A DNA stretch of 63,651 nucleotides from an uncultured Rhodobacterales bacterium (lineage in GTDB: Bacteria; Pseudomonadota; Alphaproteobacteria; Rhodobacterales; Rhodobacteraceae): the NCBI GenBank assembly GCA_964448765.1, contig CAYUXM010000001.1:1-63651 (forward strand). The letters run 5' to 3'. The first letter of the stretch is position 1; each line of letters starts with the position of its first letter. Below, one piece after another: positions 4,124 through 59,274 of this stretch. Below the pieces are notes generated by a model. It made no database searches, was not told the origin of the DNA, and saw only the letters and a list, made by a program, of their open reading frames with translations. Position numbers and translations under genes: made by a program.

Positions 4124-5899
4124 TCACTCCCGTGGCACGATCCTGAGGCCCAGTTCGCGCAGCTGCTCGTTCGAGGCCTCGGTCGGCGCGCCCATCATCA
4201 GGTCTTCGGCGCGCTGGGTCATCGGGAACATGATGACCTCGCGGATATTGGTTTCGTCGGCCAGAAGCATCACCAGCCGGTCGATGCCCGCCGCGCAGCC
4301 GCCATGCGGCGGGGCGCCGTATTTGAACGCCTTGACCATGCCGCCGAAGCGCCGCTCGACCTCGTCCCGGCCGTAACCGGCGATCTCGAAGGCCCGGAAC
4401 ATGATCTCGGGCTTGTGGTTGCGGATGCCGCCCGACAGCAGTTCATAGCCGTTGCAGGCGAGATCGTATTGCCAGGCCAGCACCGTCAGCGGATCGCCCT
4501 GAAGCGCCTCCAGCCCGCCCTGCGGCATCGAGAACGGGTTGTGGCTGAACTCGATCTTCCCGGTTTCCGCGTCCTTCTCGAACATCGGGAAATCGACGAC
4601 CCAGGCGAAGCGGAACACGCCCTGTTCGGTCAGGCCAAGCTCGTTGCCGATCTCCACCCGCGCCTTGGCCGCGACGGTCTCGAAGGTCTCGGGCCGGCCG
4701 CCGAGGAAGAAGGCCGCGTCGCCGGCCTTCAGGCCGAGTTCCTGCCGGATCGCCTCGGTCCGTTCCGGGCCGATGTTCTTGGCGAGCGGGCCTGCGCCTT
4801 CCGGCACGCCGCCCTCGTCGCGCCAGAAGATGTAGCCCATCCCCGGCAGGCCCTGCGCCTGCGCGAAGGCGTTCATCCGGTCGCAGAACTTGCGGCTGCC
4901 GCCGCCCGGCGCCGGGATCGCGCGGATCTCGGTGCCCTCGTTTTCCAGAAGCTTGGCGAAGATGGCAAAGCCCGAGCCGCGGAAATGCTCGCTGACCACC
5001 TGCATCCGGATCGGGTTGCGCAGGTCGGGCTTGTCGGTGCCATACCACAGCATCGCGTCGCGATAGGCGATCCGCGGCCAGTCGGGATCGACCGTGCGGC
5101 CGCCGCCGAACTCCTCGAACACACCCTGGATCACCGGCTGCACGGCGGCGAAGACATCGTCCTGGGTGACGAAGCTCATTTCCACATCGAGCTGGTAGAA
5201 ATCGGTGGGCGAGCGGTCGGCGCGCGGGTCTTCGTCGCGGAAGCAGGGCGCGATCTGGAAATAGCGGTCGAAGCCCGCCACCATGATCAGCTGCTTGAAC
5301 TGCTGCGGCGCCTGCGGCAGCGCGTAGAACCGGCCCGGATGCAGCCGCGACGGCACGAGGAAATCGCGCGCCCCCTCGGGTGACGACGCGGTGATGATCG
5401 GCGTCTGGAATTCGGTGAAGCCGCTGTCCCACATCCGGTCGCGCAGGCTTTTGACCACCCGCGCGCGCAGCATGATGTTGTCGTGCAGGCTGTCGCGGCG
5501 CAGGTCGAGGAACCGGTAGGCCAGCCGCGTCTCCTCGGGGTAGTCGAGATCGCCGAAGACCGGCAGCGGCAGTTCCTCGGCCGGGCCCAGCACCTCGACC
5601 GCGCGCACGTAAACCTCGATCTCGCCGGTCGGGATCTTCGCGTTGATCAGCGTGGCGTCGCGCAGCTTCACCTCGCCGTCGATCCGGATCACCCATTCGG
5701 ACCGCACCGTCTCCAGCGTCGCGAAGGCGGCGCTGTCGCCGTCGCACAGCACCTGGGTGATGCCGTAGTGGTCGCGCAGGTCGATGAACAGCACCCCGCC
5801 GTGGTCGCGGACCCGGTGCACCCAGCCCGAAAGACGCACCGTCTGACCGGCATGGGCGGCGTTGAGCTCGGCGCAGGTGTGGCTGCGATAGATGTGCAT
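4124..5899 (-). CDS. aspS: Aspartate--tRNA ligase
   Basis: [46 protein letters not shown]. Class II motifs FRDED and [10 protein letters not shown]. The ATG at 5899 was confirmed; the track ORF starts 24 codons upstream. Confidence 0.95.
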
Positions 5900-53292: not shown

Positions 53293-54525
53293 ATGGCCGA
53301 GGATCTGGTGAACAGCTTCATGACCGGGCCGGACGAGAACGGCCGTTTCGGCATCTTCGGCGGGCGCTTCGTGTCGGAAACGCTGATGCCGCTGATCCTC
53401 GACCTCGAGGCGGAATACGAGAAGGCCAAGACCGACGCGGGCTTCTGGGCCGAGATGGACGATCTGTGGAAGCACTATGTCGGCCGGCCCAGCCCGCTCT
53501 ACTTCGCGCCGCGGCTGACCGAGCATCTGGGCGGCGCCAAGGTCTACATGAAGCGCGACGAGCTGAACCACACCGGCGCGCACAAGATCAACAACGTGCT
53601 GGGCCAGATCCTGCTGGCCCGCCGGATGGGCAAGGAACGGATCATCGCCGAAACCGGCGCCGGCCAGCATGGGGTGGCCACCGCGACCGTCTGCGCCAAG
53701 TTCGGGCTGAAATGCGTGGTCTACATGGGCGCGCATGATGTCGAACGGCAGGCGCCGAACGTGTTCCGCATGCGGCTTCTGGGCGCCGAGGTGGTGCCGG
53801 TGACCTCCGGCCGCGGCACGCTGAAGGACGCGATGAACGACGCGCTGCGCGACTGGGTGACCAATGTGCGCGACACGTTCTACTGCATCGGCACCGTCGC
53901 GGGCCCGCATCCCTACCCGGCGATGGTGCGCGATTTCCAGTCCATCATCGGCAAGGAAGTGCGCTGGCAACTGGCCGAGCAGGAGGGCGAGGGCCGGCTG
54001 CCCGACACCGTGATCGCCGCGATCGGCGGCGGATCGAACGCGATGGGGCTGTTCTACCCGTTCCTCGACGATCCGTCCGTGGGAATCATCGGGGTGGAGG
54101 CCGGCGGCAAGGGTGTGGATGACCGGATGGAGCATTGCGCCAGCCTCACCGGCGGACGGCCCGGCGTTCTGCACGGCAACCGCACCTACCTGTTGCAGGA
54201 CGAGGACGGCCAGATCCTCGAAGGCTTCTCGATCTCCGCCGGGCTCGACTATCCGGGCATCGGGCCGGAGCATTCCTGGCTGCACGACACCGGCCGCGCG
54301 CAATACGTGTCGATCACCGATGACGAGGCGCTGGAGGCGTTCCAGCTGAGTTGCAGGCTGGAGGGCATCATCCCGGCGCTGGAGCCCAGCCATGCGCTGG
54401 CCCATGTGACGAAGATCGCCCCGGACCTGCCGAAGGACCATATCATCGTCATGAACATGTGCGGCCGCGGCGACAAGGATATCTTCACGGTCGCCCGGCA
54501 CCTCGGCTTCGACATGGGCGGCTGA
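53293..54525 (+). CDS. trpB: Tryptophan synthase beta chain
   Basis: [17 protein letters not shown]...[15 protein letters not shown]...GGGSNAMG. Confidence 0.97.
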
Positions 54526-54540
54526 GCGCCGGTTTCCGGG

Positions 54541-54581
54541 CCATAAACCCCGGTTTATGGGCAGGGTCCGATGGTTTATGG
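54541..54581. promoter_or_regulatory. GTTTATGG motif cluster: perfect inverted repeat plus a third direct copy
   Basis: CCATAAAC-CCCG-GTTTATGG (54541-54560), then 12 nt, then GGTTTATGG (54573-54581). It is AT-rich relative to its surroundings and lies between the trpB stop and the first PepSY-like gene. Confidence 0.4.
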
Positions 54582-54698
54582 ACCGCCGCCTAACCCTGGG
54601 GTCAATGGACCGGAGCGGGTCGGCGGCGTCCCTTTGCGGCGTCCGGCACCACCAAGACGCGGTGGCGGACCTGTGTATGCAAAGGAAAGGACAGATCC

Positions 54699-55535
54699 AT
54701 GACCCCCCGTATCTTCCAGCTTTCGGCGGTTGCCGCCCTTCTCGGCTCCGCCGCGCTGGCCGGCCCGTTCGAGGACCGGATCGTGGAGAACCTGCAAGAC
54801 CTCGGTTACGACTATATCGAGGTGAAGACCGGCCCGAGCCAGGTGAAGGCCGAGGCCGTGCGCGGCGCCCGCAAGCTCGAGGTCGTCTACGACCGCTCGA
54901 CCGGCCGGATCATCAGGCGCGAGGAGGAACGCGCGGGGGCCGAGTATCGCGGCCGCACCGGCGTGGAATTCGATGTCGAGAGCGACGACTTCCTCGACGA
55001 CGTGCCGCGGGCATCCAGCGCCCCGTCGGGGTCTGTGGCCGGTGCGCCGGGCGCGTTCGAAAGCCAGATCGTGGACGACCTGCAGGGCATGGGCTACGAG
55101 TATATCGAGATCGAGACCGGCCCGGGCCAGGTGAAGGCCGAGGCCGTGCGCGGCGACCGCAAGCTCGAACTGGTGTTCGACCGGGCCACCGGCCGGGTGA
55201 TCAAGCGCGAGGAGGAACGCGCGGAGGCCGAGTATCTGGGCCGCACCGGTGTCGAGTTCGATACCGACGACGAGGATTTTCTCGATGACGACGACCGCGA
55301 TGACGACGATGATCGCTACGATGACGACGATCGCGACGATGATCGCGACGATGACGACGATCGTGACGACGACCGGGATGACGATCGCGACGATGATCGC
55401 GATGATGACCGGGACGACGATCGCGACGACGACGACGATGATGATGACCGCGATGACGACCGCGACGACGACGATGACGATGACCGCGATGACGACCGTG
55501 ACGACGACGATGACGACGACGACGACGATGACTGA
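54699..55535 (+). CDS. Secreted protein with two tandem PepSY-like modules and an Asp/Arg-only C-terminal tail
   Basis: Signal peptide MTPRIFQLSAVAALLGSAALAG. Two 80-aa modules (GPFEDRIVENLQDLGYDYIEVKTGPSQVKAEAVRGARKLEVVYDRSTGRII... and GAFESQIVDDLQGMGYEYIEIETGPGQVKAEAVRGDRKLELVFDRATGRVI...). The 83-residue tail contains only D, R and one Y. AAGGAAAGGA RBS. Confidence 0.8.
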   Translation: MTPRIFQLSAVAALLGSAALAGPFEDRIVENLQDLGYDYIEVKTGPSQVKAEAVRGARKLEVVYDRSTGRIIRREEERAGAEYRGRTGVEFDVESDDFLDDVPRASSAPSGSVAGAPGAFESQIVDDLQGMGYEYIEIETGPGQVKAEAVRGDRKLELVFDRATGRVIKREEERAEAEYLGRTGVEFDTDDEDFLDDDDRDDDDDRYDDDDRDDDRDDDDDRDDDRDDDRDDDRDDDRDDDRDDDDDDDDRDDDRDDDDDDDRDDDRDDDDDDDDDDD

Positions 55536-55570
55536 GGGCAGCCATGCCCTTGTCGGCCCGCTGGCCGTGA

Positions 55571-55594
55571 CCCCGCCGCAGGATTGCGGCGGGG
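55571..55594 (+). other. Perfect 10-bp stem / 4-nt loop hairpin between the two PepSY-like genes
   Basis: CCCCGCCGCA-GGAT-TGCGGCGGGG, 36 nt after the stop at 55535 and 20 nt before the next ATG. No U-tract follows. Confidence 0.5.
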
Positions 55595-55613
55595 CTTGCC
55601 CCGGAGGACTGTC

Positions 55614-56171
55614 ATGACCGCCCGCCGCAGCCTGCTGTTCGGCCTGGCCGCGCTCGTCGCCCTGCCCGGCGCGGCCCTTGCGCAGGACCGCGGGATCCAG
55701 GACCGGATCATCGAGGCGCTGAAGGATCAGGGCTACGCGCGGATCCAGATCGGCCGCACCTTCCTCGGCCGTGGCCGGATCGAGGCCGAAGGCCCGCCCG
55801 GCGAGCGCGAGATCATCTTCAACCCGCGCACCGGCGAGATCCTGCGCGACGTCTGGCGCGACGGCGGCGACGGCGGCGGCGGGCGCGACGAGGACCGGGT
55901 GCTCGACCGCGATGATTACGACGAGGAGGACGACCGGGACGACGATGACCGGGACGATGCTGACGACGACGACCGCGATGATCGCGACGATGATCGCGAC
56001 GACGACAGGGATGACGACCGCGACGATGACGACCGCGACGACGATGACGACCGCGATGACGATGATCGCGATGACGACGATGATCGCGACGACGACCGCG
56101 ACGACGACGACCGGGATGACGACGACCGGGATGACGATCGCGACGACGATGACGACGATGACGATGACTGA
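55614..56171 (+). CDS. Secreted protein with a single PepSY-like module and an Asp/Arg-rich tail (paralog)
   Basis: Signal peptide MTARRSLLFGLAALVALPGAALAQ. Module is IIEALKDQGYARIQIGRTFLGRGRIEAEGPPGEREIIFNPRTGEILRD. Tail is DDRDDDDRDDADDDDRDDRDDDRDDD...DDDDDDDDD. GGAGGA RBS. Confidence 0.8.
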   Translation: MTARRSLLFGLAALVALPGAALAQDRGIQDRIIEALKDQGYARIQIGRTFLGRGRIEAEGPPGEREIIFNPRTGEILRDVWRDGGDGGGGRDEDRVLDRDDYDEEDDRDDDDRDDADDDDRDDRDDDRDDDRDDDRDDDDRDDDDDRDDDDRDDDDDRDDDRDDDDRDDDDRDDDRDDDDDDDDD

Positions 56172-56230
56172 ACCGGGCCGAGACACCGACGGCGCCGATC
56201 CGTCATTCGGGCCATGCAGTTAGCGGGCGC

Positions 56231-56779
56231 GTGAAGGGGTCCGCCACGATCACGCTGATCCTTGTCGTGCAGGCGGCCTGCGCGGTGTTCTTCGTCTATG
56301 ACATCCTGTCCAGCGTGATCGGTTTCGGAACCACGCCGATGTCCTGGCAGTTGCGCGAGTTGCTGGAAATCGGCGCGGCGCTGGGCCTCGTGCTGGGCAT
56401 CGTGCTGGGCGCGATGGCGCTCAGGCGCACGATGGAGGCGCGCCGGCGTGCCGAGCGGCAGTTGCGCGCGGCCTCGGCGGCCTTCATGGAGGTGCTGGAG
56501 GAACGGTTCGCGGACTGGGGGCTGACCCCGGCCGAGCGCGACGTGGCGTTGTTCGCGATCAAGGGCATGTCCACCGCCGAGATCGCGCAGTTGCGGGCGA
56601 CCTCGGAAGGCACGGTGAAGGCGCAGACCAACGCGATCTACCGCAAGGCGGGTGTCAGCGGACGGCCGCAGCTGCTGTCGCTGTTCATCGACGACCTGAT
56701 GCAGCCCGGCCCCGTGCCCGATGCCGGCGGCCCGGCAGCGACGCCGGGCGCAGCGCCGGTGACAAGCCGCCGGGCCTGA
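56231..56779 (+). CDS. Membrane-anchored LuxR/GerE-type HTH transcriptional regulator
   Basis: Two N-terminal TM helices (ITLILVVQAACAVFFVYDIL, LLEIGAALGLVLGIVLGAMAL). C-terminal domain is LTPAERDVALFAIKGMSTAEIAQLRATSEGTVKAQTNAIYRKAGV. GTG start. Confidence 0.8.
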   Translation: MKGSATITLILVVQAACAVFFVYDILSSVIGFGTTPMSWQLRELLEIGAALGLVLGIVLGAMALRRTMEARRRAERQLRAASAAFMEVLEERFADWGLTPAERDVALFAIKGMSTAEIAQLRATSEGTVKAQTNAIYRKAGVSGRPQLLSLFIDDLMQPGPVPDAGGPAATPGAAPVTSRRA

Positions 56780-56781
56780 CC

Positions 56782-57156
56782 TCAGCTCGACACCGCCTGG
56801 GTGTGCAGCACCTCGAAGGGCACGATGTCCAGCGCGCCCCGATGCGTGGCCTCCAGCACCACGCGCGGCGCGCAGCCTTCCTCGTGCGCCTGCAGGAACC
56901 GCGCCGCGCACAGGCACCAGCGGTCGCCGGGCCGCAGGCCGGGGAACTGGAACTCCGGCCGCGGTGTCGACAGGTCGTTGCCGACGTATTTCGAGAACGC
57001 AAGGAACTCCGCCGTCATGATCGCGCAGACGGTGTGGCTGCCGTGATCCTCCGCGCAGGTGTTGCAATGCCCGTCCCGGAAGAAACCGGTCCTCGGTTCC
57101 GCCGAACAGGGTTCCAGCGGGGTGCCGAGAACGTTGACCGCCGGGTCCATCTGCAT
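56782..57156 (-). CDS. DUF2237 family protein
   Basis: NVLGTPLEPCS..PRTGFFRDGHCNTCAEDHGSHTVCA.MT.EFL. The ATG overlaps the upstream stop by 1 nt (TGATG). Confidence 0.8.
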   Translation of the reverse strand: MQMDPAVNVLGTPLEPCSAEPRTGFFRDGHCNTCAEDHGSHTVCAIMTAEFLAFSKYVGNDLSTPRPEFQFPGLRPGDRWCLCAARFLQAHEEGCAPRVVLEATHRGALDIVPFEVLHTQAVSS

Positions 57157-57415: not shown

Positions 57416-58492
57416 TCAGGGTAGGGTGAGATCGGCCGCGGGCAAGGGCGGCACTGTCCATTTCACGTGACGGCCGTGAAAGTCCGTGCGTCCCAGCGAC
57501 GTGACAGTTCCGCCGGGCCAGGTCGTGAGGGTCAGGGCCGCGCTGCCGGGGGTTGAATCGGCTTCCATCGCCAGACGGGCGAGCGGCGCGGCCCGTGTCG
57601 CCCGCGCGCCGGCGGCGTTCAGCGCGGCGGCGCAGTGCGTCCGGGTCGCCCTTGGGAAATACTGCCAGGCCACGGTGTGACAGACCAGGTGCAGGCGCCC
57701 CGGCATCGGCTCGGCCAGCCGCGCCTCCAGCCAGTCGGCGGCATCGCCGCGGTCGGGCCGGAGGCCAAGCCGCGCGGCCTCGGCCGCCGCGCGCCGCGTC
57801 CGGTCGAGCCGCGCGGGCTGGTCGGGCCAGAGAAAGGCCAGCAGCCGCGGCAGGTCGACGGCCGGATCGAGCGGGTTCAGGTCCACCCCGGCGCGGCCGG
57901 CGATCCGGGGGGTGGCGACGGGCGGCAGTGGTCCTTCCCAGCCCGGCGCGAGGCTTAGGACGGCATCGGCCGGGCCAAGGCGGCGACCGGGCAGGTCCAG
58001 CGCGTAGCGATCCCAGATCAGGTTGAGCCCGGCGCTGGCGCCAAGCTCCGACAACACCAGCGGCAGGCCGAACCGCGCCGCCAGCCAGTGCCCCGCGGCG
58101 ATCAGGACGGCGGAGCGCCCGGTTTCGTTGGTTTGCGGCGCGTGGTCGAGCCAGCGGTCGATCCGGGTGGCGTGGCGCCGCATCGCGCCGGCCAGCGCCT
58201 GCCAGAGCGCCGCGTCGTCGATCGCGTCGCGATCGGCATAGGCGCGGGCGAGCGCCGGGTCTGCGCCGTCCAGCGCCAGCGCATGCAGCGCCCCGGCCAG
58301 CCGCAGCGGCACCGCGTCGCCGGTGGCGGTGATGTCGCCGGGCCAGGCCAGCAGGCGGTCGGCCAGCGGCAGGTCGGCGGTCAGCCGATCCCCGATCAGG
58401 CGCAGCAGCCTTTCCATGAAGGGCGAGCCCAGCCGCCCGCAGGCCCGGGCCTGTGCCGCGCAGGCCGCGGCGAAGCGGCCCGCGCCGGTCAC
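57416..58492 (-). CDS. DUF2332 family protein
   Basis: [21 protein letters not shown]...[15 protein letters not shown]...FLWPDQ..R. The GTG at 58492 overlaps the pth stop (GTGA). Confidence 0.7.
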
Positions 58493-59274
58493 CGGAACCG
58501 GTCCACCAGCCGTTGCAACGGGCTGCGCGGTTCGGCCGCCGGGTCCGGCTTCGTGGCGGGCGCCGGATCGGCCTTGCCCGCGCCATCACTGTCCGCGTCG
58601 GCCGACGTCGCGCCGCCCTGTTCCGCGCCCGTCTTGCCCGTGCCCGTCTTGCCCGTGCCCGTCTTGCGCGTGCCCGTCTTGCCCGTTCCGGTCGAGGACC
58701 GCGGCGGCGCCGTCCTCAGCGCCACGGCATTGAGAAACTTCGCCGGATCGCCCGCGGCCAGTGCCGGGGCGCCATCGGAAATCCCGCGCAGCAGGTCGTC
58801 GAGCCAGTCGGCATCGGCCTTCGCGAAATCCGACAGCACGTAGCCCGATACCCGGTCCTTGTGGCCCGGATGGCCGATCCCCAGCCGGACCCGCGCATAG
58901 GCATCGGTGCCAAGGTGCTGGTGGATCGAGCGCAGCCCGTTGTGCCCGGCATGGCCGCCGCCCTGCTTTTGGCGCAGCTTGCCCGGCGCGAGGTCCAGCT
59001 CGTCATGGAACACCGTGACATCGGCGGGCGTCAGCTTGAAGAACCGCAGCGCCTTGCCGACCGACTGGCCCGAGAGGTTCATGAAGGTCTGCGGCTTGAG
59101 CAGGATCACCTTCTCGCCGCCGAGGTTGCCCTCGCTCACCGCGGCCTGGAATTTCGACCGCCAGGGCGAAAAGCCGTGATCCGCCGCGATCCGGTCGAGC
59201 GCCATGAAGCCGATGTTGTGCCGGTTCTGCGCGTATTTCGCGCCCGGGTTGCCAAGGCCCACGAAAAGCCGCAT
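58489..59274 (-). CDS. pth: Peptidyl-tRNA hydrolase with a roughly 70-aa low-complexity C-terminal extension
   Basis: [27 protein letters not shown]...[22 protein letters not shown]. Extension is [26 protein letters not shown]... Confidence 0.93.
58627..58686 (-). repeat. Four tandem 15-bp repeats inside the pth 3' extension
   Basis: Plus-strand unit GCCCGTCTTGCCCGT x4 (one unit has C>G). Encodes (TGKTG)n on the minus strand. Confidence 0.85.

Follow-up and report, generated by a model that had tools for sequence, protein, structure and literature searches.

Many members of the Rhodobacterales, the order to which it appears confined on sequence evidence, carry a cassette of three genes (A, B and R) that is probably an uncharacterised module for sensing or buffering cations, likely calcium, in the cell envelope. 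Two PepSY-type proteins with disordered, polyanionic tails are encoded immediately before a membrane-anchored LuxR/GerE regulator, and a conserved palindrome lies at a fixed spacing ahead of the first gene. Tentatively, and with slightly less than even confidence, we read the cassette as a self-contained, single autoregulated operon that represents a cation-sensing, one-component variant of the modules in which PepSY proteins accompany membrane transducers. Literature searches on PepSY with LuxR, Asp-rich PepSY proteins, LIC13292, poly-aspartate in the periplasm and transmembrane LuxR proteins of the Rhodobacteraceae found nothing that describes such a cassette.

Gene organization

In the window, by which we mean the whole 63.6-kb stretch of DNA that was analysed, three plus-strand open reading frames lie directly 3' of trpB (53293-54525), as the original prediction of three same-strand genes had placed them (Table 1). 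The A-B and B-R gaps measure 78 and 59 nt, and no terminator-like site falls between the three genes; two terminator-like matches, one 3' of trpB and one inside R, do not exceed the number in shuffled sequence. A sigma-70-type promoter was not found by a promoter scan, and an Rfam scan of positions 54400-56900 returned neither a riboswitch or leader element nor a leader-type RNA structure. For gene B, the most plausible start is the ATG at 55614, which is preceded by GGAGGA. The coding frame of the tails in both proteins is backed by GC3 and by in-frame conservation across at least 80 genomes.

Table 1. Coordinates of the cassette, its protein segments and the candidate operator sites in the window.
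Feature	Position	Strand	Description
Operator site 1 (candidate)	54541..54560		Perfect palindrome CCATAAACC-CC-GGTTTATGG, 20 bp
Extra direct half-site	54573..54581	+	GGTTTATGG; lies 21 bp past the second site-1 arm
Operator site 2 (candidate)	54590..54608		Degenerate palindrome CTAACCC-TGG-GGTCAATGG
Gene A	54699-55535	+	278 aa; tandem PepSY_2 protein with polyanionic tail, predicted to be exported
A signal peptide	54699-54761	+	N-terminus MTPRIFQLSAVAALLGSAALA then GP; read by eye
A module 1	54765-54977	+	AF2 model, aa 23-93
A module 2	55053-55265	+	AF2 model, aa 119-189
A D/R tail	55284-55532	+	aa 196-278
Gene B	55614-56171	+	185 aa; divergent Arg-rich PepSY-like protein with D/R tail, predicted to be exported
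B signal peptide	55614-55682	+	Contains RR motif; sequence reading
B module	55683-55859	+	PepSY-like
B tail	55905-56168	+	D/R-rich
Gene R	56231 (GTG)-56779	+	182 aa; predicted membrane-anchored LuxR/GerE one-component regulator
R transmembrane hairpin	56234-56422	+	Two hydrophobic segments, AF2
R cytoplasmic stalk helix	56423-56518	+	AF2
R HTH	56519-56701	+	GerE PF00196

Two PepSY-type proteins of opposite core charge

Protein A begins with what reads by eye as a signal peptide, comprising a positive n-region, a hydrophobic core and an A-x-A cleavage motif, and it matches Pfam PepSY_2 (PF13670) over two stretches at 35.7 bits (gathering score 24.3). The AF2 model of A contains two alpha + beta-sheet modules with pLDDT values above 90 (a helix at residues 23-34 and another at 119-130, each followed by five strands), consistent with the PepSY/BLIP-like fold, in which one helix packs on a four-stranded antiparallel sheet. 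Foldseek returned 4exr as the best match, along with DUF2874 proteins and a BLIP-like protein, all at probabilities of 0.90-1.00 despite low whole-chain TM-scores. When compared with all PDB sequences, the type A profile matched no PepSY entry at E up to 10, the uS3/KH matches being spurious, and the profile search did not detect homology of A to UipA (7ATH) or to any solved PepSY metal binder. Residues 196-278 of the model, which correspond to the tail, have pLDDT values below 50. The original prediction of a signal peptide, two PepSY modules and an 83-residue tail composed of 68 Asp, 14 Arg and 1 Tyr thus stands, the tail count being exact.

The B protein of the window has no Pfam match by itself. 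At the profile level, 67 B orthologues align with the type A profile over 84 columns (hhalign probability 98.2%, E = 3e-14), and 42 of the 67 match PF13670 weakly while 30 match PF03413. These matches agree with the predicted paralogy of A and B, and place B in the PepSY superfamily. The two cores differ in charge: that of type A is net acidic, that of type B net basic with four invariant Arg residues. The B module is highly conserved and Arg-rich, with the invariant sequence REI..NP.TGEILRD, and its family extends to 1839 representative clusters. B proteins also tend toward a twin-arginine-like signal peptide, in that 52 of 79 proteins of type B contain RRx[FLIVMA][LIVMFT], vs 4 of 59 of type A. 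Assignment of B to the Tat pathway nevertheless remains just below the HMM threshold, since TIGR01409 scored 15.2-16.4 bits in 3 of 10 tested B proteins (cut-off 16.7), and the window's B, which carries RRSLLF, has no match to this model.

Acidic tails and putative EF-hand replacements

The composition of both tails is far beyond chance expectation. The strict D/R tail of B spans 69 residues (56 D, 13 R), or 88 if E, Y and A are allowed, and the post-domain regions of the two proteins have net charges of about -61 and -56. Among the homologues of A, roughly 70 of 72 clusters have Asp-rich or otherwise acidic low-complexity tails. The tails are acidic and of low complexity in most genomes, falling into D/E, D/S/G, D/N, D/H and poly-D types; a tail built only of D and R, as described in the original prediction, is not what is conserved and is restricted to this lineage. 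Some genomes contain runs of at least 40 Asp, the tails are often interrupted by R, G, S and N, and most finish with DD or DDD before the stop codon. About a quarter of B tails (19/76) have less than 25% D+E and are Gly/Ser-rich. Codon bias is unremarkable, GAC accounting for 62-66% of tail Asp codons against a background of 71%.

In two lineages (L036 and L063), the position of gene A is occupied instead by a putative EF-hand protein with a similar acidic tail; Aestuariibius insulae has such a protein. The EF-hand pattern PS00018 occurs once in the L036 protein and twice in that of L063, compared with 5 of 7942 ORFs over all loci; Pfam EF-hand_6 scored 18.1 bits on the L036 protein, under its gathering score of 25, and did not match the L063 protein. 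At the sequence level, these replacements hint at calcium and, together with the metal binding of the characterised PepSY proteins LanP and UipA, lend indirect backing to the cation idea of the original prediction.

A minimal membrane-anchored regulator

R matches GerE (PF00196) at 29.6 bits (gathering score 23.5), and Pfam searches identified neither a receiver (Response_reg) domain nor, at E up to 10, an autoinducer-binding domain (PF03472). Its N-terminal 64 residues form two hydrophobic helices (segments at about residues 5-27 and 44-64), and the AF2 model (pLDDT 82.8) consists of a helix at 2-30, an 8-residue loop and a helix at 39-96 that continues into the HTH. The HMM search, hydrophobicity and structural model all agree with the architecture first described, namely two transmembrane helices joined by a short loop and followed by a GerE HTH, with no receiver or autoinducer domain. 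Profile matches of the HTH in the PDB were to the DNA-binding domains of GerE and VraR, and by Foldseek it resembles those of RcsB, NarL and DosR (rmsd 1.1-1.9 Å over about 57 residues), in keeping with the four-helix HTH fold of the LuxR/GerE family; Foldseek recognised only the HTH, and the transmembrane hairpin had no relative. The NCBIfam models of response regulators align with the HTH alone and score far under their cut-offs, and by sequence R appears to be neither a NarL/FixJ response regulator nor a LuxR-type quorum-sensing receptor. The LIC13292 family model (NF047608) covers residues 67-157 only, that is, stalk and HTH, at 59.5 bits against a cut-off of 200; by this measure R is a relative, not a member, of that family.

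Across orthologues, the hairpin and its cap retain invariant residues at Q14, C17, D24, W39, R42, E43 and E46, and the recognition helix is invariant. The original prediction had the acidic tail signal simply through the membrane-bound regulator, and how it would do so is not obvious, as the AF2 model exposes only about eight residues of R to the periplasm. With so few residues exposed and no DbfS-like sensor domain, R offers little on which a periplasmic protein could dock.

Conservation, linkage and a dedicated operator

In every one of 80 related genomes, drawn from many genera, B immediately precedes R on the same strand, and the two genes stay together even at loci with rearranged flanks or a displaced trpB or DUF2237. 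Cultured carriers include Actibacterium naphthalenivorans DSM 105040, Tabrizicola thermarum, Thioclava sp. FR2 and Cypionkella sinensis. A is present in about 59 of the 80 loci, and A or another secreted acidic-tailed protein in about 65. Most loci preserve the synteny of the trpF-trpB-...-DUF2237-pth block; gene order is therefore weaker evidence than it appears, being partly inherited with this region. At the syntenic site of contigs encoding the Cereibacter sphaeroides TrpB, on the other hand, A, B, R and the palindrome are all missing, and this joint absence indicates that gain or loss affects the cassette as a whole. An apparent A-B fusion in P0212 proved to be a frameshifted assembly.

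The upstream palindrome has the general form CCATAAACC-NN-GGTTTATGG. In the window, the 9-mer of site 1 occurs exactly three times, always within 54541-54581, and ATAAACNNNNGTTTAT is unique. Allowing at most 4 mismatches in 18 positions, the palindrome was found in 45 of the 80 related loci; 47 of 48 matches lie upstream of PepSY genes, and the distance from the palindrome centre to the start codon of the first gene has a median of 146 nt (IQR 134-162). When these 45 loci are anchored on site 1, a forward half-site is present at offset +32 in 19, and site 2 emerges as a stretch of conservation between offsets +50 and +67 with the family consensus TAAACC-NN-GGTCAATG. Among high-GC metagenomic contigs with the palindrome, 30 of 39 have the cassette directly downstream. 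By these sequence searches the palindrome appears dedicated to the cassette and occurs essentially nowhere else; matches in low-GC metagenomes are an unrelated gut repeat, a variant with a TATA spacer is a different element, and a wider regulon was rejected because the strict palindrome in metagenomes nearly always adjoins the cassette. We also rejected a role as the trpB terminator: the palindrome stays with the cassette where trpB is 2 kb away (L058), direct-repeat copies of it are spaced 21 bp apart, its loop is only 2 nt long, and a T tract is lacking. The invariance of the recognition helix of R, which matches this conserved operator, is counted in favour of an R-operator pairing. Together, the B-R pairing, the block absence and the dedicated operator uphold the conserved linkage on which the original prediction depended.

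Comparison with known systems

The closest parallels are the modules in which an exported PepSY protein modulates a two-component system. In Vibrio cholerae, DbfQ binds the sensor domain of DbfS and is predicted to be co-transcribed with dbfRS, with a PdbfQRS reporter as the readout; in Pseudomonas aeruginosa, BqsRS is preceded by two PepSY genes (PA2659-PA2658), of which just the neighbouring one is predicted to encode a sensor-binding protein (PMC12714742). By gene layout, the cassette appears to be of the DbfQRS-like type, with exported PepSY proteins near a transducer on the same strand. As in those modules, small PepSY proteins (Sec-exported, here by prediction) are encoded just ahead of a membrane transducer and presumably share its transcript; there are one or two PepSY genes per module; the universally retained B corresponds to the transducer-adjacent PepSY protein predicted to bind in P. 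aeruginosa; and DbfQRS-type modules are read from their own promoter. The differences lie in the transducer, which is here a single 182-residue protein with a two-helix hairpin, an 8-residue loop and a LuxR HTH in place of a histidine kinase with a periplasmic sensor and a response regulator, and in the PepSY proteins, which carry disordered polyanionic tails of 70-100 residues and, in B, a twin-arginine-like signal peptide. Neither the cassette nor its conserved flanks contain a histidine kinase or receiver gene.

Additional precedents exist for the individual parts. LanP (Lanpepsy) of Methylobacillus flagellatus is a metal-binding PepSY protein whose best PDB relative by HHpred is 4EXR (PMC9988556), the entry that is also the top Foldseek match of the A model, and UipA of Microbacterium is a metal-binding PepSY protein encoded beside the regulatory system UipRS (Gallois et al. 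as cited in PMC8963506). LanP and UipA resemble A, as predicted, in being extracytoplasmic tandem PepSY proteins rich in acidic residues; their acidic residues are on the folded PepSY surface, whereas here the charge resides mostly in the disordered tail. Similarly, ToxR-ToxS (PMC13042144) pairs a membrane-bound DNA-binding protein with a co-encoded periplasmic partner and needs no phosphorelay, but ToxR has an N-terminal OmpR-type winged helix, one transmembrane helix and a folded periplasmic domain, whereas R has a C-terminal LuxR HTH, two transmembrane helices and no periplasmic domain. CoxC (PMC11347149) shares with R the fusion of an N-terminal membrane module to a C-terminal DNA-binding domain and an operator of repeated sites; its multi-helix MHYT module and LytTR domain contrast with the minimal hairpin and GerE/LuxR domain of R, and with LytTR as its DNA-binding domain it was discarded as a membrane LuxR precedent.

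Long disordered Asp/Glu runs with low-affinity, high-capacity cation binding are a feature of calsequestrin and of poly-Asp biomineralisation proteins. These are eukaryotic proteins of unrelated folds, and no transcription factor is linked to them.

Proposed mechanism and alternatives

We propose that A and B would be exported into the periplasm, where multivalent cations may be bound with high capacity by the disordered poly-Asp tails and by the acidic face of the A sheet, Ca2+ being the likeliest cation. Given that B is always encoded beside R and has a conserved Arg-rich module, it may be the direct partner of R, contacting the membrane-proximal acidic cap (invariant D24, R42, E43 and E46), with A as an accessory high-capacity binder. 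Should B be the sensor, its tail need not be acidic, considering the Gly/Ser-rich B tails described above. R would dimerise through its long stalk helix and bind the palindromic operators upstream of A, and expression of the cassette would follow the cation status of the envelope.

Several other readings draw on the same observations. The short loop of R, set against the many invariant residues of its hairpin, would also suit a regulator that senses a membrane or envelope cue through the polar residues of the hairpin and leaves A and B as output only; as polyanions in the periplasm they would buffer or sequester cations, keep minerals from nucleating or add fixed negative charge. An operator upstream of A makes A and B the obvious regulated genes, LanP and UipA are binders and not sensors, and the tails are free to vary in sequence and length as bulk polyanions would; however, B is invariably beside R, its conserved module exceeds what a carrier of bulk polyanion needs, and the DbfQ precedent casts PepSY proteins beside transducers as modulators. 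On balance we rate this output-only role as rather unlikely. A much more remote proposal, which we consider very improbable, is that A and/or B hold in check a protease of the periplasm or membrane, which if uninhibited would cut R and free its HTH. PepSY was originally defined, according to a paper citing that definition, as a putative peptidase inhibitor domain, and R is small, membrane-tethered and furnished with a long linker helix; yet no protease gene is located in or near the cassette in the loci inspected, and a hairpin of N-in/C-in topology gives site-1 cleavage no periplasmic domain to act on.

The tails might alternatively act during their own synthesis, long acidic nascent chains destabilising ribosomes in cis (intrinsic ribosome destabilisation, IRD). 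In Escherichia coli, translation of a GFP-20D construct ends prematurely for more than 50% of the product, and the IRD motif of mgtL senses Mg2+ and controls MgtA expression. By analogy, 70-90 mostly acidic codons could abort ribosomes and so set how much full-length A and B is made and how strongly R is expressed, an mgtL-like principle residing in the 3' ends of structural genes of a conserved operon, with read-through of the tails gating the downstream genes by cytoplasmic Mg2+ or translation capacity. The location of the tails at the 3' ends of both genes upstream of R, their DD or DDD endings and the longest Asp runs would fit such a role, whereas the interspersed R, G, S and N, the lack of any coupling in the two intergenic gaps and the absence of leader-type RNA structures or Rfam elements do not; moreover, the tails follow conserved exported domains and are retained in the putative EF-hand replacements, which argues for a role of the mature protein. 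We judge this reading highly improbable, and it may in any case coexist with periplasmic cation binding by the tails. Finally, the genes might have no functional link, their order being inherited with the syntenic trp region, R regulating unrelated genes and the tails being neutral products of slippage. The tail DNA is indeed an imperfect short-period repeat, tail length differs among near-identical metagenomic variants (P0012-P0019), and the P0212 assembly frameshifts within the tail. Against this, the cassette and operator are absent as a block in C. sphaeroides-type loci, B and R are inseparable despite flank rearrangement, the operator is dedicated to the cassette, and the two paralogues have held on to their reading frame and net acidity across genera although the sequence itself has turned over completely, such that a missing functional link is very unlikely.

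Implications

If the proposed envelope cation-sensing operon is correct, the Rhodobacterales, a dominant marine and freshwater group, would carry a previously undescribed and very compact envelope signalling module, in which the ligand-binding element is the disordered polyanionic tail of a periplasmic PepSY co-factor and a minimal two-helix LuxR protein binds DNA from the membrane. The recently recognised PepSY-transducer principle exemplified by DbfQRS would thereby extend from two-component to one-component systems, with a defined pair of operator and regulator available for genetics. The A and B proteins are candidate high-capacity metal-binding tags, and they raise the practical question of how 40-90 nearly consecutive Asp residues are translated and exported. 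More broadly, the cassette would provide a bacterial case of functional poly-Asp disordered regions in the homeostasis of Ca2+ or other cations.

Architecture of the cassette

Three same-strand genes, here designated A, B and R, follow trpB and, together with the palindromes upstream of A, make up the cassette. Gene A begins with a Sec-type signal peptide, MTPRIFQLSAVAALLGSAALA/GP, as read by eye from its n-region, hydrophobic core and A-x-A motif. Pfam PepSY_2 matches the protein over two stretches (35.7 bits against a gathering score of 24.3), and an AlphaFold2 model built from a 49-sequence alignment contains two helix-plus-sheet modules (aa 23-93 and 119-189, pLDDT >90) and an unstructured C-terminal tail (pLDDT <50) of 83 residues, comprising 68 Asp, 14 Arg and 1 Tyr. 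The best PDB matches of this model in Foldseek, namely 4exr, DUF2874 proteins and a BLIP-like protein, all have the PepSY-like fold. The original prediction, made from the sequence alone, had recognized both modules, and its manual tail count was exact.

Coordinates of the cassette genes, candidate operator elements and flanking genes

Feature	Position	Strand	Length	Remarks
trpB	53293-54525	+		precedes A, B and R
Perfect palindrome, CCATAAACC-CC-GGTTTATGG	54541-54560			between trpB and A
Third exact half-site	54573-54581			21 bp after the second arm of the perfect palindrome
Second, degenerate palindrome	54590-54608			between trpB and A
Gene A	54699-55535	+	278 aa	
Gene B	55614-56171	+	185 aa	most plausible start ATG 55614, with GGAGGA in front
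Gene R	56231-56779	+	182 aa	
pth	58489-59274	-		three genes downstream

Gene B of the window, searched alone, returned no Pfam match; its strict D/R tail spans 69 aa (56 D, 13 R). A profile of 67 type B orthologs (homologs of B) aligns with the type A profile at an hhalign probability of 98.2% (E = 3e-14), which supports at the profile level the earlier view of B as a paralog of A, and 42 of the 67 weakly match PF13670. A search at E up to 1e-3 places 1839 representative clusters in the type B family, which makes it a large one. Folded cores are net acidic in type A (median -3), with conserved Lys and Glu alternating along the strands, and net basic in type B (median +2.5), with four invariant Arg in RTLLGRxRI...REIIxNPRTGEILRD. 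Additionally, a twin-arginine-like RRxFL motif occurs in the signal peptides of 52 of 79 type B proteins, in the form M(K/N)RRxFL (window signal peptide 55614-55682; L001-L080), vs 4 of 59 type A proteins, whose signal peptides are Sec-type. Because type B scores for the TIGR01409 Tat model fall just below the cut-off, possible Tat export of B is only a lead.

Gene R matches GerE/LuxR above threshold (29.6 vs 23.5 bits); nothing else in the domain search was significant, and neither a receiver nor an autoinducer-binding domain was found. Hydropathy and AlphaFold2 (pLDDT 82.8) place a helix at residues 2-30, an 8-residue loop, and a continuous helix at 39-96 that forms TM2 and then a cytoplasmic stalk leading into a four-helix HTH, which superposes at ~1.1-1.9 A on the DNA-binding domains of RcsB, NarL and DosR. 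Pfam, hydropathy and AlphaFold2 thus agree with the predicted LuxR/GerE HTH behind two TM helices. The protein is strongly conserved (67-93% identity among the top 120 database relatives), its recognition region is invariant across the family, and all 41 relatives compared retain Q14, C17, D24, P36, W39, R42, E43 and E46. The membrane part is probably more than an anchor: in the model, D24, R42, E43 and E46 come together where the two helices reach the periplasmic side, and they are predicted to form a charged cap at the membrane surface, which could bind either a cation or B through its Arg-rich face. The domains of A, B and R are already known, and NCBI labels the genes 'PepSY domain-containing protein', 'hypothetical protein' and 'LuxR family / helix-turn-helix transcriptional regulator'.

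Conservation and genomic linkage

At least 519 species genomes carry a relative of R. The 80 best loci come from a wide range of genera (Rhodobacter, Tabrizicola, Cypionkella, Actibacterium, Thioclava, Roseovarius, Marivivens, Rubellimicrobium and others); in every one of them (80/80) the gene immediately 5' of R, in the same orientation, is of type B. Type A precedes B in 59, and in 6 more this position, slot A, is filled by another secreted acidic-tailed protein. The same arrangement surrounds four further A homologs looked up independently, including those of Salibaculum and Roseivivax. Because the whole neighborhood is syntenic (trpF-trpB-(A)-B-R, convergent DUF2237, then pth), gene order alone is weak evidence of a functional link. 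Three points exceed synteny. The B-R pair is never split, even where trpB or DUF2237 is displaced (L005, L015, L037, L044, L049, L058); a conserved cis element is dedicated to the cassette; and the cassette is present or absent as a block, since in L205/L206:6231-6319 trpB is followed by DUF2237 after 89 bp, with no A, B, R or operator at this site. The TrpB encoded on the latter contigs is identical to the Cereibacter sphaeroides protein, and absence of the cassette from such contigs explains why this model organism has no literature on it. Among open-access papers we found none on the cassette, its tails or its operator.

Several loci carry additional genes. A 2OG-Fe(II) oxygenase gene (PF13759) lies between slot A and B in three lineages, including Salibaculum halophilum (L082:5603-6226; L036:4713-5324; L151:412-1011, - strand), the three copies being ~72% identical to each other; that it modifies the Asp-rich tails, e.g. 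by hydroxylation, is pure speculation. A third, B-like paralog lies upstream in four cassettes (L018:3534-4088; L034:1798-2328; L054:2279-3064; L067:1755-2213). The sequences inspected (L018, L067) have a Pro/Ala/Ser/Val-rich tail and no acidic one, and in L034 and L067 a palindrome sits just 3' of trpB, 350-760 nt upstream of the paralog's ORF. Finally, the exact A and B proteins are absent from a 15-billion-protein collection in which R and TrpB of the same NCBI contig are present; gene callers evidently treat the low-complexity A and B genes differently, and the family is therefore under-represented in protein databases.

The acidic tails

In most cases the conserved tail property is acidity plus low complexity, not the D/R pattern. 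The original prediction described Asp/Arg-only tails for the window genes; homologs carry D/E, D/S/G, D/N, D/H, D/R or near-pure poly-Asp tails, some with Asp runs >40, and D/R composition is common to the window and its closest relative, L081 (a Rhodobacteraceae MAG). Of the linkage of PepSY protein, D/R tail and regulator that the prediction proposed to survey, the B-R adjacency stands, and D/R composition is not what is kept. The region following the modules has a median length of 89 aa and 50% D+E in A, and of 73 aa and 35% D+E, with higher Gly and Ser, in B; it exceeds 25% D+E in 41 of 43 A proteins vs only 57 of 76 B proteins. Nothing unusual was seen in the codon usage of the tails. Most tails of both types, whatever their composition, end in DD or DDD before the stop codon (L001-L080), and 24 A-type and 35 B-type scored ORFs end in DD.

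The A and B tails of any one genome resemble each other, with Spearman coefficients for residue fractions across genomes, uncorrected for phylogeny, of 0.72 (D), 0.67 (S), 0.60 (G), 0.55 (H) and 0.49 (R). The two window tails (55284-55532 and 55905-56168) share a 30-nt exact stretch, and in L081 (5934-6458) the final residues of the B tail follow the DDDR pattern that closes the window A tail. This likeness suggests exchange between paralogs or a common constraint. The tail-length comparison proposed with the original prediction, run on near-identical metagenomic variants (P0012-P0019), gave 38 to 99 aa, a spread to which repeat-assembly artifacts may contribute. The tail repeats also yield frameshifted chimeric proteins in public assemblies, as in P0212, an apparent A-B fusion, and a split regulator (L084:6343-6866). 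Long antisense or out-of-frame ORFs over the window tails (54576-56186, 55201-55711 and 55916-57067, - strand), of poly-Val/Ile, poly-Ser/Arg or Thr/Met-rich composition, are shadows of the GAC/GAT/CGC repeats rather than genes.

A candidate operator

A putative operator array (54541-54608) lies outside the interval of the original prediction, which did not mention it. All three copies of its half-site 9-mer in the 63.6-kb window fall within the array, and ATAAACNNNNGTTTAT is unique within the window. Allowing up to 4 of 18 mismatches, the palindrome occurs 48 times in 45 of the 80 loci; of these 48 occurrences, 47 are upstream of PepSY genes, and wherever gene starts were checked they precede the first PepSY-like gene, also in B-only cassettes and where trpB is 2 kb distant. 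Conservation extends to an extra half-site at +32 and to the second site at +50 to +67; the median distance between palindrome center and start codon is 146 nt (IQR 134-162). When metagenome contigs were scanned without bias for the strict palindrome, 39 high-GC contigs emerged, of which 30 have the cassette immediately downstream and one more is truncated by the end of the contig; the other matches belong to a distinct TATA-spacer element or to low-GC gut repeats. No known RNA element was found in the leader. A 20-bp palindrome would fit the binding site of a dimeric GerE/LuxR HTH, and we infer that R binds it.

Relationship to known systems and proposed function

As far as gene layout allows, the cassette may work like the DbfQRS module of V. 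cholerae. There, DbfQ, a small periplasmic PepSY protein encoded immediately upstream of dbfRS and predicted to be co-transcribed, binds the kinase DbfS at its sensor domain and determines that kinase's output, module activity being read from a PdbfQRS reporter in this 2025 study; PepSY plus two-component neighborhoods are >60-fold enriched across phyla, and of two PepSY genes upstream of P. aeruginosa BqsRS, sensor binding is predicted for the adjacent one alone (PMC12714742). The Rhodobacterales cassette has the same logic and two-gene layout. However, a single 2-TM LuxR factor with almost no periplasmic surface replaces the histidine kinase plus response regulator that defines DbfQRS modules, and the PepSY proteins bear long polyanionic tails. 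ToxRS-type co-component regulators (PMC13042144) and CoxC-type membrane one-component regulators (PMC11347149) are looser analogies.

Hints to a ligand come from slot A. In L036 (Paracoccaceae MAG, 4224-4604) and L063 (Aestuariibius insulae, 4787-5281), it encodes a different secreted protein in which one or two predicted EF-hand loops of the canonical pattern (DTNGDGELTYREL; DSNGDGELSFAEL and DDDNDGRVSLAEM) take the place of PepSY modules, followed by the same type of acidic tail. The PROSITE EF-hand pattern matches 5 of 7942 ORFs across all compared loci; Pfam EF-hand_6 scores the L036 protein below threshold (18.1 vs 25 bits). This non-orthologous exchange of A points to Ca2+ as a candidate ligand. 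Characterized PepSY proteins bind metals via acidic surfaces; LanP, whose best PDB relative is 4EXR, as for the gene A model, binds lanthanides (PMC9988556), and UipA, encoded beside the UipRS two-component system, binds uranyl and Fe3+ (Gallois et al., as cited in PMC8963506).

The main rival to a cation-sensing role holds that R senses the membrane by itself, A and B being merely its output. The 8-residue loop of R favors this reading; the strong constraint on the B module and its obligatory adjacency to R favor B as part of the sensor, and we regard sensing by R alone as rather unlikely. Protease control and the absence of any functional link are minor alternatives, as is a co-translational role of the tails via intrinsic ribosome destabilization, for which there is precedent: in E. 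coli, translation aborts on poly-acidic nascent chains, an effect that mgtL exploits for Mg2+ sensing. Peptidyl-tRNA hydrolase (Pth) clears peptidyl-tRNA dropped during poly-acidic translation. The pth gene is syntenic with the cassette in many loci, which is notable given the poly-Asp tails; its proximity is most likely coincidental, reflecting the usual pth-L25 neighborhood.

The reading that we favor, tentatively and at somewhat less than even odds, is that of an autoregulated envelope cation module, of which architecture, linkage and operator are the parts observed. The cation would probably be Ca2+, with A acting as a high-capacity binder, B as a co-sensor signaling to R, and R binding the palindromes upstream of its own cassette.
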